A stretch of DNA of 47,845 nt from Candidatus Methylomirabilis sp. (lineage in GTDB: Bacteria; Methylomirabilota; Methylomirabilia; Methylomirabilales; 2-02-FULL-66-22): NCBI GenBank assembly GCA_037442485.1, contig JBBIQE010000006.1, positions 1-47,845 of the forward strand, written 5' to 3'. The stretch's first letter is position 1; the number at the start of each line of letters is the position of its first letter. The notes under the pieces are model-generated. The model had not been told where the DNA came from, ran no database searches, and saw only the letters and a list, made by a program, of their open reading frames with translations. Both the position numbers and the translations under genes were made by a program. Shown here piece by piece: positions 153 to 15,784 of this stretch.

Positions 153-1838
153 TCACTGCCTCCGCAGTTCCCGGGCCCTCTGCGAGGCCGCCCGCGCCCC
201 CGACCGGTCGCCCAGAACGAGGAGGACATCCCCGAGATTCTGGTAGGCCTTGGCATACCCTGGGTTGAGGGCGATGGCCCGCTCGTAGGCCTGGCGGGCG
301 GCGATCAGGTGTCCGCTTCGCGCCAGGGCCGCCCCCAAGTTGTTCCAGGCGATGGGATTCGCCGGCTCCAGATCGCGGGCGCGGGTGAGGGCGGCGATGG
401 CGTCCTGGAACCGACCGTCCTTCAGGTATTCCAGCCCCAGGTTGCTCTGGACGAAAAAAGAGGTGGGAGTGCGGGCCGCCATGCCTTCATAGACCCGCAC
501 CGGATCGCCCCACTCGGCGGTCCGGACCTGGATGGTGGCGGTAAAGGCGATGAGCAGACCGGCGAGAAGGCCGAGCGCAAACATCCTCGCACCGGGCATC
601 GGTGAGGTGAGGAGTGCCTGGCGGAGGAGGGCAGCTCCGAGCAGGGAGAAGCCGACCGACGGAAGGTACAGGTACCGTTCGGCCAGGGTAAATCCCGGGA
701 TCGGGATCAGGTTCAGAACCGGGAGAAGGCTGAGAAGGATCCACCACGTGCCGAACACCATCAGCCGGTTCCGTCGCGCCAGGAGAAGGAGACCGGCCAG
801 GACCGCCAGCACGAGGAGACTGCTTCCGAGGACGCGGGGATCGGCCCAGCTCTGCGGGACGGCAATCGGGCGGATGAAGGAAAAGGTGAATGGCCACAAC
901 AAGAGACGCCCGTAAGTCAGCAGGGTGATCGGCGCCAGCCCCAGGCGCGGAGTCCCCAGGCTGTGCAGATCGGCCGGCAGGATCTTGCCCAGAACCGCCT
1001 GTCGCACCAGGAGGTACGCAACCAGAATGGCCATCCCTGCCGCGAGGAGAATCCCCCTGCGGCGCCTCGGCTCGGCCCCCTGGGCGGACTCCGTCCAGGA
1101 GAGCGCCAGCGCCAGGGCGGGCCACATCACCGCGATCTCCTTGGCCAGCAAGGCCGCCCCCAGGGCGAGCAGGCTCCCCGCTCCCGCAACGATTGTCGTC
1201 TCGAGCCCCCGCGTCCGCCCGTAACGCCACAGGGCCAGCAGGCTTGCCAGAAGGAACAGGGTGGCCAGAAGGTCGGTTCGCCCCTGCACCATGTCCACGG
1301 ACTCGGTGTGGATGGGGTGGGCGGCAAAGAGCAAAGCCGTGAGCAGTCCGAAGAGCGGACTGGCGGACAGAGCGCGGGCCAGCTCGAAGACGAGCCACGT
1401 GTTGGCCGCGTGCAGCAGCCAGTTGGTGAGGTGAAACCCGCCCGGTTCCCCGTTCCAGAGTCGAGCGTCCACCCAGTAGGAAAGATTGGTCAGGGGGCGG
1501 TAGTACGGCAGGGTGAAGTCGGCGAACTGCTCCGGGCGTCGCAGGATCTCCGCCGGGCTCTGGCCGGGGGCGAGGCGGATGTTCGAGGTGATGATGGTTT
1601 CATCGTCGATCAAGAAGTCGTTGCCCAGACTGCCTGCGTAGAGCAAGAGGGGAAACAGGAGAGCCAGGATCCTCCCCCAGCGGAGGAGCACGGCTGGATG
1701 CGTGTACCGTCGCGGGAGGAGCGGGTGCCATGCCTCCAGGGTGGCGGCTTGCCCAGGGAGGGGAGGGGTGGTTGTGTCTTCACCCTCCGCGGGGGGAGGG
1801 ACATTGGCCAGCGGGCCGGCGGGACGGAAACCCTTCAC
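153..1838 (-). CDS. TMTC-like (DUF1736/PMT_2-type) GT-C membrane glycosyltransferase homologue with C-terminal TPR repeats
   Basis: 561-aa ORF. GTG start 13 nt after the pilD stop, preceded by AGGTGA. Polytopic N-terminal part carries FLIDDE, YYRPL, GGFHLTNWLLH and HPIHTESVDMVQGRTD, which recur in ORFs 4087-6075 and 6193-8172. C-terminal part is TPR-like (AWNNLGAALARSG, AYQNLGDVLL). Family call is from motif memory, not an HMM. Confidence 0.8.
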   Translation of the reverse strand: MKGFRPAGPLANVPPPAEGEDTTTPPLPGQAATLEAWHPLLPRRYTHPAVLLRWGRILALLFPLLLYAGSLGNDFLIDDETIITSNIRLAPGQSPAEILRRPEQFADFTLPYYRPLTNLSYWVDARLWNGEPGGFHLTNWLLHAANTWLVFELARALSASPLFGLLTALLFAAHPIHTESVDMVQGRTDLLATLFLLASLLALWRYGRTRGLETTIVAGAGSLLALGAALLAKEIAVMWPALALALSWTESAQGAEPRRRRGILLAAGMAILVAYLLVRQAVLGKILPADLHSLGTPRLGLAPITLLTYGRLLLWPFTFSFIRPIAVPQSWADPRVLGSSLLVLAVLAGLLLLARRNRLMVFGTWWILLSLLPVLNLIPIPGFTLAERYLYLPSVGFSLLGAALLRQALLTSPMPGARMFALGLLAGLLIAFTATIQVRTAEWGDPVRVYEGMAARTPTSFFVQSNLGLEYLKDGRFQDAIAALTRARDLEPANPIAWNNLGAALARSGHLIAARQAYERAIALNPGYAKAYQNLGDVLLVLGDRSGARAASQRARELRRQ

Positions 1839-1851
1839 GCCTTCACCTCAT

Positions 1852-13529: not shown

Positions 13530-13531
13530 GC

Positions 13532-15784
13532 TCACGGCTCACAGGGGCCCGACTCGATCACCGGCAGATTCTCCAGGAACCAGGCGTCCCCGATCAGGCG
13601 GAGAGTCGCCCGGCCACACCGATCGAGCAGGCCGCTGGGAGTTTCGACCTCCACGGCGAACCGCAGGGTTGCCTCCCGCTCCCATCCGGTGAGGGCATCG
13701 ATTCTGGACAGCCTCGCTCGGGCAGGAGCGTGTCGCAACCCCATCTTGCCTCCTGCTTCACCCGATGGCTCGCGGCGAAGCTCCGGGGCCAGAAATCGCC
13801 CCGCGGATTCCCATCCGCTTCGACCCAGGGCTTGCCAGAATCTTTCTACGGTGACTTCGGGAGACGTTTGGTCCGGCCTCCCCTGGTTCGCGCAGATCCC
13901 GCGAGGATCCGGCTCGGCCAGCCGGCGGGCCTGATCCGCCGCCGCCCGCTCGCGATCTATCTTGCCGGCCTCGGCATAGAGTCGTGCGGCGATTCGGCTC
14001 ATCCGCGCCAGCAGGTACCGATCCCCGGGCGCCAGGCAACGGGCTTCCCGTGTCAGCACGGCCTCCGGGGTAAAGATCGTCACGGCCTGTTCATACCACC
14101 ACCGGGCCTCTGCCGGCTTCCCGGCCCGGGCTGCCGCCTCGACCAGGGCAGCATGGAACCGGAGCTGGGCGAAGGGCGCCCGATCCACCGCCCGCTGGAA
14201 TCGGGCTACGGCACCCTCCCAGCGTCCGGCCGCCCCAGCCACTTCCCCAGCCAGATACTGACTGTTGGGATCCAAGGGCGCGATGCGGGCCGCCCCCTCG
14301 GCAGTCTCCTCGGCGCTCCGGGGATCTCCGGAGCGCAGGAATGCCCGTGCCAACCATTGGCGGGCAGGGAAGCTCAGGGGATTCAGGCGCAGGGCCCAGA
14401 CGAGGTCATCTCGGGCGGCTTCCGCCTGCCCAGCCTCGAGCCCGGCTCGGCCCGCGGCCATCAGAGTGGTCGAGAAGTACCGGGAGAGCGACAGGAGGCC
14501 AGCCGCCGCCAGGAGCAGCAGGAATCCGACGCGCCACGCCAGGGAGGTCGGGGCGTGGCGCATCCGCATTCCCTGCAGGTGTGCTCCCGCCAGCCCGAAG
14601 AGCGTCGCCGCCGTGACGGCGATGGCCGGGAAGCTCCAGTCCAGGTCCACCGCACTGTGTGCGGCGAAGGCCACGAGGGTCGCCAGCAGGATCGCCAATC
14701 GGCGGCGGCTCGGATCCTTTGCCGGGGCCCGGCGGATGACCGCGCCCACTCGCCACAGGAATCCGCCCAGGGCTGCCACGGCCAGAAGCGCGGCCGGCAG
14801 GCCGTACTCGGCGGCGATCTCCAGGTACAGATTGTGGGGGTTCACGCCGCTCACGTATGGCAGGCGCTGGTAGTGGGTCAGGGCAACCGGGAATGCCCCC
14901 GGGCCCACACCCCACCAGGGATGATTTCGCACCATGGCCCAGGTCCAGCGCAGGATGTGCAGCCGCCACAGAAAGGAGGTGTCGGTGGCCCCGGTGGAGG
15001 GCTGGGGAAGCCTCCAAGGCTGAGCCGAAAGCACGCCGAGCCGATTCAGCACCGAGACCAGGATCAGGCCGGCCGCAAGCCCCGCCACCACCGGCCAGAG
15101 GCGCCGCCGCTCCCACCAGACGTATCGCTCCAGCGCGGCCCATACGAGGAGCCCTGCGGCGGCGGCCAGCAGGGCACCCTGGGACCGGGTGAGCCCGAGG
15201 GCCACCATCATCAGGGTGCCCCCGGCCACGGCAAGGCTCCGGGAGATGCGCCTCTCGGGCCCGCCCGCTAGCGCCAGGGCTGCTCCAGTCGTCAGAAGCA
15301 GATACCCCGCCATGGCATTCGGGTATCCGAAGGGGCCCGTGGGAACTCTGGCGTACACCCCCACCCCGCTCGTAAGAAACAGGCGGAGCAGGCCGAAGCC
15401 GGCGACCAGCACGCCCGCCACGGCAAGGCCGTGAAGCAGCAGACCTTCGGCCCACCAGCCCTCGCGGGCGCCGCGATACGCCACGATCCCCGCCAGGGCG
15501 TAGGAGAGGAGCAAGAGCAGGCTCTGGACGGTCCGGTCGGGATAGATCGTGTGCAGACCGGATGCCGCGGCGAGAATTGCTGCCAGAGCCAAGAGCGGGG
15601 AGGGCCGGAGAAGGGCCGAGTTCCCACGGGCCAGCGATCCGGCCGCGGCCGCCAGGGCCATGAGCAGGATCAGGCCGGCCTGGCCGGCGGGGCTGCGGCC
15701 CCCTGCGGCCCACGGGAGGCCGACCTCGACACCGGCCAGGATGAGGATGGCGAGGGAGAGGAGGCGAGGGTTAGGCGTCGGCAT
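13532..15784 (-). CDS. O-antigen ligase family (Wzy_C domain) polytopic membrane protein with TPR repeats and an extra C-terminal domain
   Basis: 750 aa. Periplasmic-loop motif RWTWAMVRNHPWWGVGPGAF ... NPHNLYLEIAAEYGLPA is typical of WaaL/PglL/TfpO-type enzymes. TPR-like units follow (ARDDLVWALRLNP, RQWLARAFLRSGDPRSA, QYLAGEVAGAAGRWEGA), then about 130 aa of unassigned C-terminal domain. The ATG at 15784 overlaps the end of pilR by 14 nt. Confidence 0.85.
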   Translation of the reverse strand: MPTPNPRLLSLAILILAGVEVGLPWAAGGRSPAGQAGLILLMALAAAAGSLARGNSALLRPSPLLALAAILAAASGLHTIYPDRTVQSLLLLLSYALAGIVAYRGAREGWWAEGLLLHGLAVAGVLVAGFGLLRLFLTSGVGVYARVPTGPFGYPNAMAGYLLLTTGAALALAGGPERRISRSLAVAGGTLMMVALGLTRSQGALLAAAAGLLVWAALERYVWWERRRLWPVVAGLAAGLILVSVLNRLGVLSAQPWRLPQPSTGATDTSFLWRLHILRWTWAMVRNHPWWGVGPGAFPVALTHYQRLPYVSGVNPHNLYLEIAAEYGLPAALLAVAALGGFLWRVGAVIRRAPAKDPSRRRLAILLATLVAFAAHSAVDLDWSFPAIAVTAATLFGLAGAHLQGMRMRHAPTSLAWRVGFLLLLAAAGLLSLSRYFSTTLMAAGRAGLEAGQAEAARDDLVWALRLNPLSFPARQWLARAFLRSGDPRSAEETAEGAARIAPLDPNSQYLAGEVAGAAGRWEGAVARFQRAVDRAPFAQLRFHAALVEAAARAGKPAEARWWYEQAVTIFTPEAVLTREARCLAPGDRYLLARMSRIAARLYAEAGKIDRERAAADQARRLAEPDPRGICANQGRPDQTSPEVTVERFWQALGRSGWESAGRFLAPELRREPSGEAGGKMGLRHAPARARLSRIDALTGWEREATLRFAVEVETPSGLLDRCGRATLRLIGDAWFLENLPVIESGPCEP

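Follow-up and report, generated by a model that had tools for sequence, protein, structure and literature searches.

A type IV pilus operon of Candidatus Methylomirabilis with an optional cassette for putative pilin glycosylation

Introduction

What do glycosyltransferase-type genes do in the middle of a type IV pilus (pil) operon? The question is raised by a DNA stretch of 47,845 nucleotides from Candidatus Methylomirabilis sp. (contig JBBIQE010000006.1; the whole stretch is referred to below as the window). At positions 153–15784 its pil genes are interspersed with genes for five membrane enzymes fused to tetratricopeptide repeats (TPR) and for a family 2 glycosyltransferase fused to a methyltransferase (GT2-MT). 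An earlier note, made from the letters of the sequence, had read these genes as a periplasmic glycosylation system dedicated to the pilus. On balance, we favour the reading that the operon carries pilin-accessory glycosylation genes in three slots, and that an optional cassette in one of them glycosylates pilins in the periplasm.

Results and Discussion

An optional cassette with one constant position among the pil genes

The proposed system can be divided into three slots. Slot A, between pilR and the pilin genes, would comprise the gene for a Wzy_C+TPR protein; slot B, after the pilin genes, that for an ArnT-like enzyme; and slot C, between the gene for a PilG-like protein and pilD, the optional cassette. 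All genes from 23671 down to 153 lie on the minus strand. In the window, slot C contains the genes for two TMTC-like GT-C+TPR enzymes (paralogue 1, 659 aa, 6193–8172; paralogue 2, 662 aa, 4087–6075) and for the GT2-MT fusion (445 aa, 2610–3947). The prepilin peptidase gene pilD (1852–2613; A24_N_bact and Peptidase_A24 domains) is followed by the gene for a third TMTC-like enzyme with a short TPR region (paralogue 3, 561 aa, 153–1838).

The pil side of this arrangement was surveyed by a metagenome scan with the PilG-like protein, which yielded 80 loci, 48 of them non-redundant and with a complete interval between the PilG-like gene and pilD. The interval is empty (30–231 bp) in 33 of the 48 loci, contains GT2-MT together with TMTC-like genes in 12 and GT2-MT alone in three, and contains TMTC-like genes alone in none (0/48). 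This pattern indicates that a donor synthase and its transferases form an optional cassette, which has one fixed position in the operon. Within it, the gene order differs between loci (GT2-MT before TMTC-like genes or the reverse, with one to three TMTC-like copies), while its linkage to the pil operon is kept. Among the loci with GT2-MT alone, L092 has an ArnT-like+TPR gene upstream, L102 has there a gene for a fused membrane/spermidine-synthase-like/TPR protein, and in L111 the upstream region is missing. The recurrence of the gene set beside pil genes, which the earlier note had proposed to check, is found inside the pil operons of relatives.

The TMTC-like proteins are about 30–38% identical across loci, with one 58% match in L122. 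Far more conserved are the GT2-MT (55–78%), the ArnT-like+TPR protein (72–74%, with orthologues in the same slot in L049, L092 and L122) and the products of the flanking pil genes. For the GT2-MT, PilG-like and TMTC-like proteins, the best of the named relatives come from metagenome-assembled genomes (MAGs) labelled candidate division NC10, Candidatus Methylomirabilota or Methylomirabilales, in keeping with an uncultured member of that phylum as the source.

Related pil loci also encode a fused protein of about 1100 aa with polytopic membrane, spermidine-synthase-like and TPR parts (L005, 4152–7460; also L007, L008, L049, L089, L113, L116, L124 and L126). Its gene is located in the ArnT-like+TPR slot or after the PilG-like gene, with or without the glycosyltransferase cassette. 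With it, the kinds of TPR-fused membrane enzyme associated with these operons number six.

TMTC-like and ArnT-like enzymes

The domain assignments of the locus genes are backed by Pfam (E≤0.01; scores are given in bits against the curated cut-off) and NCBIfam. PMT_2 is matched, together with TPR, by TMTC-like paralogue 1 (32.9 bits) and paralogue 2 (43.4 bits, with PMT at 31.8 bits), as well as by the ArnT-like GT-C enzyme with C-terminal TPR of slot B (10641–12302; 50.3 bits, cut-off 26.1), the gene of which begins 10 nt after that of pilin 2. PMT_2/PMT is therefore above the cut-off in three of the four GT-C genes. The fourth, paralogue 3, has a TPR match but no Pfam PMT_2 match and was assigned by BLASTP to paralogue 2 (1e-37, 32% identity over 525 residues). 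The Pfam models named in the earlier note were otherwise matched (PMT_2, TPR, Wzy_C, Glycos_transf_2 and Methyltransf_11/23), except DUF1736 (PF08409), which has no match at this threshold in any window protein and is recorded for some TMTC-like homologues (P0199, P0200 and P0205).

The three TMTC-like proteins are mutually about 32–35% identical, and their three-way alignment contains in all of them the four motifs by which they had been recognized as paralogues, F(V/L)(W/I)DD, (Y/F)(Y/F)RP, xPxG(F/Y)HLTN and HPxHxExV...GRxD. In an alignment of 46 homologues with about 30% identity (residue numbers refer to paralogue 2), D37, D38, P77, F133, P137, V143 and K194 are invariant, and H98, H105, H136, E141, R358, Y361, Y276 and P283 nearly so. 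The motifs described for TMTC proteins are M1 DD and M2 (SHKS)YRP in loop EL1, M3 RxD in EL2, M4 KE(T/Q)xxT in EL3 and M7 ERxxY in EL5 (PMC7801869). Their counterparts here read FVWDD, (Y/F)(Y/F)RP, GR(V/T)D, (S/A)KE(T/S/I)AV and (A/P)ER(Y/W)LY, respectively. M1 DD, M2 YRP, M4 KE and M7 ERxxY are invariant or nearly so in the 46 homologues, M2 being retained as the YRP core only, and M3 RxD (R149, D151) is kept in the three paralogues. The DW motif (M5) was not located in the TMTC-like proteins of the window.

The AlphaFold2 (AF2) model of paralogue 2 has a pLDDT of 89.4 over the full length and 88.3 for the membrane domain (residues 1–420). TPR proteins were the only matches when Foldseek was run on the full-length model and when a profile of the full-length alignment was compared with the PDB; since these swamped the fold search, the membrane domain was re-predicted alone. 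Its top 23 Foldseek matches in the PDB are all GT-C enzymes (AglB, ArnT, STT3, PglB and Pmt1/2/4), with probability 1.00 and TM(query) of 0.40–0.58, so that the GT-C identity proposed from the sequence is upheld at the level of predicted structure. A single-sequence phmmer search of the PDB with the membrane domain gave no match, and PDB searches with the Wzy_C and ArnT-like proteins gave TPR matches only.

The AF2 helices, hydropathy and the positive-inside rule indicate 11 transmembrane (TM) helices, with the N-terminus inside and the TPR domain in the periplasm. In this predicted topology all the TMTC motifs map to periplasmic loops, and D37/D38 lie in the loop after TM1. The element Y276-X6-P283 is conserved in at least 90% of the TMTC-like homologues; it reads YX6PFX6P in paralogue 3, and the other paralogues deviate from this form. 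The co-occurrence of the TMTC-like genes with a Dpm1/GtrB-type synthase gene provides indirect evidence that their products may use a polyprenyl-phosphate-linked sugar donor.

In a MAG contig labelled Eisenbacteria (L165, 4338–14025), a gene for a TMTC-like protein (P0141, 35% identity) is located between a PMT_2 gene and the genes of two giant PKD-repeat surface proteins (>1500 and >2100 aa). The pairing recalls that of TMTC enzymes with cadherin repeats and suggests that the bacterial family may have other acceptor classes.

The GT2-methyltransferase fusion

The product of the GT2-MT gene combines a Glycos_transf_2 domain with a class I S-adenosylmethionine (SAM) methyltransferase (Methyltransf_11/23) and has no TM helices. 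The DAD motif (T91-M-D-A-D95) and the GCG (SAM) motif of the methyltransferase are invariant in 24 homologues. Among solved structures the profile best matches the dolichyl-phosphate-mannose synthase (DPMS) of P. furiosus (5mlz, 6e-32), followed by ArnC (8e-20 to 5e-19) and GtrB (1e-17), which bears out the earlier description of the GT2 part as Dpm1/GtrB/ArnC-like. The best NCBIfam models are AglJ, Dol-P-hexose transferase (DPhHxTase), PpgS and ArnC, all below their equivalog cut-offs; each of these models describes a polyprenyl-phosphate glycosyltransferase.

More than 4,500 matches to the fusion were obtained, the top ones with 70–84% identity, and it occurs in at least 517 GTDB species representatives (46–76% identity). 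Its spread includes NC10, Nitrospirota, Rokubacteria, Acidobacteriota, Chloroflexota, Dormibacterota, Planctomycetota and even archaea. A literature search for the GT2-MT fusion found nothing relevant, and it looks like a widespread, uncharacterised family of lipid-linked-sugar synthases.

Outside pil loci the GT2-MT gene often directly abuts a GT-C gene, of the GT87, fused GT2+GT87 or PMT_2/DUF2142 type. With only three tblastn probes, such a neighbour was seen in at least 16 of 75 non-pil loci. GT87 is a family of polyprenyl-phosphate-mannose-dependent mannosyltransferases. Owing to these GT87 neighbours and the match to DPMS, mannose is our best guess for the sugar handled by the GT2-MT. 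In two of the non-pil loci (L009 and L010, from a set that includes L009–L034), the gene upstream of GT2-MT is itself a GT2+GT87 fusion.

The Wzy_C+TPR protein

The gene in slot A (13532–15784) starts within pilR, its start and the pilR stop overlapping by 14 nt. It encodes a protein with a Wzy_C domain (81.7 bits, cut-off 31.7, E=6e-23) and TPR; PglL_A and Wzy_C_2 gave no Pfam match. Residues H317-N-X9-G328, R227, R274, H376 and D380 are conserved in 14 orthologues, and H-N-X9-G is what we take to be the periplasmic-loop signature of Wzy_C/PglL-type enzymes. Beyond the TPR lies a conserved C-terminal domain without a Pfam match (residues ~580–750; 13535–14045, minus strand), in which RCLAPGDRY (R582–Y590), C631, W650 and W735 are common to the 14 orthologues. 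This region could be periplasmic and contain disulfide bonds.

Most related loci, cassette-free ones among them, have the Wzy_C+TPR gene between pilR and the pilin gene. It is far commoner than the cassette and absent in a few loci, for example L147 and L152. By analogy with TfpO and PglL, its product is most likely an O-oligosaccharyltransferase that would use Und-PP-linked glycans made elsewhere. It is thus a candidate for en-bloc glycan transfer that would act independently of the cassette. A search of the literature for Geobacter pilins with an O-antigen ligase found nothing relevant.

The ABC/PilG-like triplet and the flippase

Between the ArnT-like gene and the cassette are genes for an ABC ATPase (PilH-like, 9631–10584; ABC_tran, and a DrrA/GldA-type ABC-2 ATPase by NCBIfam), an ABC-2 permease (PilI-like, 8870–9634; ABC2_membrane_2) and the PilG-like protein (8169–8873). 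The latter had been noted as a secreted helical-repeat protein, which agrees with its 234 aa, signal-peptide-like N-terminus and weak TPR_19 match. The three genes lie between the pilin gene and pilD in every informative related locus, the PilG-like gene always following that of the permease. Among 287 homologues of the PilG-like protein, all taxon-named sources are NC10/Methylomirabilota except one “Candidatus Acidoferrum” record.

In Myxococcus, PilGHI are required for pilus biogenesis and have been described as essential for pilin translocation (PMC6060248, PMC3724824). The M. xanthus cluster, with the order pilB-T-C-S-R-A followed by pilG-pilH-pilI-pilD after pilA, likewise has, between the pilin gene and pilD, the genes of an ABC ATPase and an ABC-2 permease and one for a small accessory protein. 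The accessory gene, however, precedes that of the ATPase there and follows that of the permease here, and a glycosyltransferase cassette is not reported at that site in M. xanthus. By position and domain type, the triplet corresponds to a PilGHI-type pilus-biogenesis module and would stand outside the glycosylation chemistry.

The ABC-2 pair had been put forward as a candidate flippase. This was rejected as the primary reading, since none of the 33 cassette-free loci lacks the triplet; the pair is a poor candidate and not a dedicated flippase. No GtrA-like open reading frame (ORF) was found in 153–15784, where no intergenic gap is long enough to hold a further gene, and a 131-aa ORF after pilD in L002 has no Pfam match.

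Pilins and expression signals

Pilin 1 (154 aa, 12821–13285; N_methyl, E=1.5e-10) has the prepilin leader ...KARG/FTLIELL and is probably the major pilin. Its orthologues have in common VGYSS(V/I)YGS(W/F)QG and a stretch rich in S/T/A/P; an example of a pilin peptide is ...VGYSSVYGSWQG. Pilin 2 (147 aa, 12312–12755) is supported by N_methyl and NCBIfam prepilin models, and orthologues of it were found in L002 and L089.

Neighbouring genes of the locus overlap or are at most 140 nt apart, with the sole exception of a 246-nt AT-rich gap 5' of pilin 1. A sigma-54-type -24/-12 element, TGGCATGGTGGCTGC (13353–13367, minus strand), is located about 70 nt 5' of the pilin 1 start codon. The motif is not enriched across the window (33 matches against 43 expected), and this site, the only positionally meaningful match of the scan, is singled out because it falls in the AT-rich gap downstream of the gene for a PilR-type sigma-54 activator.

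A strong hairpin is present directly 3' of the pilin 1 stop codon, formed by a long GC-rich inverted repeat, GACAGGGCAGG...CCTGCCCTGTC (12756–12820, minus strand), without a T-run. By attenuation or by stabilising the RNA, it may determine how strongly the major pilin is expressed relative to the downstream genes. A near-consensus sigma-70-type promoter (TTGACA-18-TAGAAT, 11/12; 10615–10644, minus strand) is located at the 57-nt gap between the ArnT-like and ABC ATPase genes. Sites of such quality are expected by chance once per 17.5 kb; this one could be an internal promoter for the part of the operon from the ABC genes to pilD.

Proposed mechanism and its alternatives

Beyond the observed domain identities, fold, motifs, topology, operon structure and presence/absence pattern, we infer a scheme for the donor sugar, its methylation and flipping, the pilin as acceptor and the role of TPR in acceptor choice. 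The GT2-MT would load a hexose, probably mannose, onto polyprenyl phosphate at the cytoplasmic face of the membrane, and its methyltransferase part may methylate the sugar. A flippase encoded outside the locus would move the lipid-linked sugar across the membrane. In the periplasm, the TMTC-family GT-C enzymes, with their putative catalytic DD loop, would transfer the sugar, the TPR being the presumed acceptor-binding module, and the ArnT-like GT-C+TPR enzyme of slot B is proposed to act likewise. The acceptor would most likely be Ser/Thr of membrane-anchored pilins before polymerisation, as with TfpW, a pilin-glycosylating GT-C+TPR enzyme of Pseudomonas aeruginosa. Pilins are the most economical acceptor because the cassette lies within the pilin–pilD operon, a GT-C+TPR gene follows the pilin genes, and TfpW provides a precedent.

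A bolder version of this scheme is possible but doubtful: a mobile cassette, made up of the synthase–methyltransferase fusion and one to three fast-diverging TMTC-like enzymes, would insert into the pilus operon in a Methylomirabilota clade and add mannose, perhaps O-methylated, to several sites of the pilins. Every TPR paralogue would recognise a site of its own, and the Wzy_C+TPR protein would act on the same fibre. If true, this would be a multi-enzyme system of pilin glycan diversification, ancestral in logic to the TMTC O-mannosylation of animals, and would give the first concrete candidate substrate for bacterial TMTC-family enzymes.

The acceptor need not be a protein. The cassette could modify a surface glycan co-regulated with the pilus, such as lipopolysaccharide/O-antigen, an exopolysaccharide or an envelope polymer, by a Gtr-type three-component system, with the Wzy_C+TPR protein as ligase or polymerase. 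The pairing of GT2 with GT-C is the classic logic of periplasmic glycan decoration (PMC11127046); outside pil loci GT2-MT lies in polysaccharide-type clusters with GT4, epimerase, WbsX and GT87 genes; pilus function and exopolysaccharide production are genetically coupled in Myxococcus (PMC3724824); and TPR domains also occur in polysaccharide secretion and export machinery, with sub-threshold NCBIfam matches here to PgaA and BcsC. We nevertheless regard this explanation as unlikely, as the locus has no genes for glycan-backbone synthesis, Wzx/Wzz or export, the cassette is embedded between the pilin genes and pilD, and the characterised GT-C+TPR enzymes (TMTC1–4 and TfpW) act on proteins. Among proteins, pilins could be at most one of many targets of a general periplasmic O-glycosylation with several acceptor classes (adhesins, S-layer or repeat proteins), the pil site reflecting co-expression or chance. 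The divergence of the three paralogues in the window fits such a role, as does the context of TMTC-like genes in other phyla, and streptococcal GtrB with a GT-C enzyme glycosylates S/T-rich regions of several membrane proteins (PMC12041528). This we judge improbable given that in 15 loci the cassette occupies one specific site in the pil operon, rearranged internally with its linkage kept, and that the ArnT-like gene directly follows the pilin genes.

The fusion with TPR allows yet another explanation, in which these membrane proteins are non-catalytic scaffolds or chaperones of pilus assembly (compare the TPR lipoproteins PilF, PilW and Tgl) and their GT-C and Wzy_C parts are degenerate. Their TPR regions do give sub-threshold matches to PilW and Tgl models, and paralogue 3 lacks the PMT_2 match. 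Degeneration is hard to reconcile, however, with the invariance of D37, D38 and K194 and the near invariance of H98, H105, H136, E141, R358 and Y361 across the 46 homologues and the three paralogues, with the strict co-occurrence of TMTC-like genes with the donor synthase gene, and with the conservation of the H-N-X9-G signature and Arg residues of Wzy_C. We therefore give this explanation very little credence.

Several observations weigh against pilin glycosylation itself. Pilins from loci with and without the cassette or the Wzy_C gene are alike in S/T content and motifs: neither the S/T fraction, nor a “STATPA”-like stretch, nor a C-terminal Ser co-varies with either of them across loci. 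The C-terminal Ser, a hallmark of TfpO systems, is present in pilin 1 and in the pilins of L006 and L089 and not in most orthologues. These features thus give no sequence-level support for a particular acceptor site. A GtrA/Wzx-type flippase is not encoded in the locus. The 48 surveyed loci are of metagenome origin and not phylogenetically independent, and the likeness to TfpW (AAM52060.1) is drawn from its published description and architecture. Among the best 80 genome loci of GT2-MT, six have pil genes within 10 kb (four in labelled NC10 MAGs, two without a phylum name), and L002, on a 5.6-Mb contig, is a seventh such locus. TMTC-like homologues in other phyla were likewise not pil-linked in the three loci viewed, where they stand beside a PMT_2 gene and PKD-repeat protein genes in one, amid several clustered GT-C and TPR genes in another, and among housekeeping genes in the third. 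Since most GT2-MT homologues (about 75 of 81 genome loci) and those TMTC-like homologues lie away from pil genes, the enzymes are not intrinsically pilus-specific. The dedication to the pilus inferred in the earlier note consequently holds for one NC10/Methylomirabilota subclade and not for the families at large.

Other genes of the locus and the window

The upstream part of the pil cluster (15771–23671, minus strand) comprises pilB (21968–23671), pilT (20841–21953), pilC between pilT and pilS, pilS (17682–19505) and pilR (15771–17168/17318). PilR and PilS were identified by Pfam, and pilC, pilT and pilB from ORF translations. The same order is found in L006, L147 and L150. An independent gene call on an identical Logan metagenome contig (L001) gave the same genes, in agreement with the gene order, strand and coordinates first reported for 153–15784. 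The likely starts of GT2-MT, the 659-aa TMTC-like protein and the PilG-like protein are internal to the longest ORFs.

In nine distant, cassette-free relatives (L130, L134, L137, L140, L147, L153, L157, L159 and L160), pilD is directly followed by a second pilS/pilR-like pair, with 31–34% (pilS) and 42–47% (pilR) identity to the genes of the window, which has a TMTC-like gene at this place.

The window has a G+C content of about 68%. Its remainder (23744–47845) encodes AroE, GlnD, an ammonium transporter (amt), an amino-acid ABC transporter, an SDR protein, a radical-SAM/DUF2344 protein and ProB; neither tRNA genes nor additional pil or glycan genes occur between 23.7 and 47.8 kb. Neither pilMNOPQ nor glycan-precursor genes are present within the window.

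Significance

Glycans on pilins influence resistance to phages, adhesion and the properties of the fibre, and most knowledge of them comes from a small number of proteobacterial pathogens (TfpO, TfpW and PglL). Accessory glycosylation encoded in pilin loci is already known by the GT-C (TfpW) and Wzy_C (TfpO/PglL) routes, and so is the periplasmic scheme of GT2 with GT-C. New are the phylum, the GT-C enzymes with TMTC motifs, the five TPR-fused enzymes in the window, a donor gene that joins GT2 to a methyltransferase, a Wzy_C enzyme extended by TPR and a further C-terminal domain, and the clear cassette behaviour. The same logic would extend to a phylum of uncultured soil and groundwater bacteria, where the donor pathway is of another kind, and a large bacterial family of TMTC-like GT-C+TPR proteins with no assigned function would be linked to a plausible protein substrate. 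The distribution of empty, paired, synthase-only and transferase-only intervals makes the donor synthase and transferase a clean, testable pair.

Comparison with known systems

The Wzy_C+TPR protein resembles TfpO (PilO), PglL and TfpM in being a polytopic Wzy_C enzyme encoded adjacent to the major pilin gene and in carrying the H-N-X9-G signature; that Wzy_C enzymes can act on pilin is known from TfpO and PglL (bioRxiv 10.1101/2020.04.19.049825). It differs from them in its TPR and Cys-containing C-terminal domain, its position upstream of the pilin with translational coupling to pilR, the lack of PglL_A and Wzy_C_2 matches, and a pilin C-terminal Ser that is not conserved. With the GtrA/GtrB/GtrC-type systems, including CsbB/YfhO and streptococcal GtrB with GT-C, the cassette shares a cytoplasmic-face GT2 and periplasmic transfer by GT-C. 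Here, however, the locus has no GtrA-type flippase gene, a methyltransferase is joined to the synthase, which has no TM helices, and the GT-C enzymes are fused to TPR.

The eukaryotic TMTC1–4, O-mannosyltransferases of the GT-C/PMT clan, have in common with the proteins of the window the 11 TM helices, the lumenal or periplasmic TPR, the DD, YRP, RxD, KE and ERxxY motifs and a Dpm1-type donor synthase as partner. Unlike them, the window proteins lack a DUF1736 match and a located DW motif, belong to a bacterial periplasmic context with pilin instead of cadherin as the candidate acceptor, and have mannose as a probable sugar.

By its architecture, the closest known system is that of TfpW, with TfpO/PglL for the Wzy_C gene. 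TfpW, found in the group IV pilin loci of P. aeruginosa (Pa5196/PA7), is an enzyme of 646 aa that glycosylates Ser/Thr of pilin and whose gene neighbours pilA; it has 11 TM helices, a periplasmic TPR and a DDX motif. Homologues are located beside pilA in Azotobacter, Acinetobacter, Teredinibacter and Kingella (bioRxiv 10.1101/2020.04.19.049825). The statement in the earlier note that bacterial TMTC-like proteins have no assigned substrate overlooked this bacterial GT-C+TPR enzyme. The two systems belong to different phyla and differ in the number of GT-C+TPR genes, one for TfpW and four here. The donor of TfpW is decaprenyl-P-D-arabinofuranose (D-Araf), made by DprE1/DprE2/UbiA-type genes, none of which occurs in the window, where a Dpm1/GtrB-type GT2 with a methyltransferase is found instead. 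The full PL4 motif of TfpW, YX6PFX7P, is approximated here by the Y-X6-P element (Y276 and P283) in the fourth periplasmic loop. Both systems, in turn, have GT-C enzymes of about 550–660 aa encoded in a pilin locus, with a cytoplasmic N-terminus, 11 TM helices, an acidic motif (the DDX, essential in TfpW) on periplasmic loop 1, a core like that of ArnT and a C-terminal periplasmic TPR, and both would draw on a polyprenyl-phosphate monosaccharide donor made at the cytoplasmic face.

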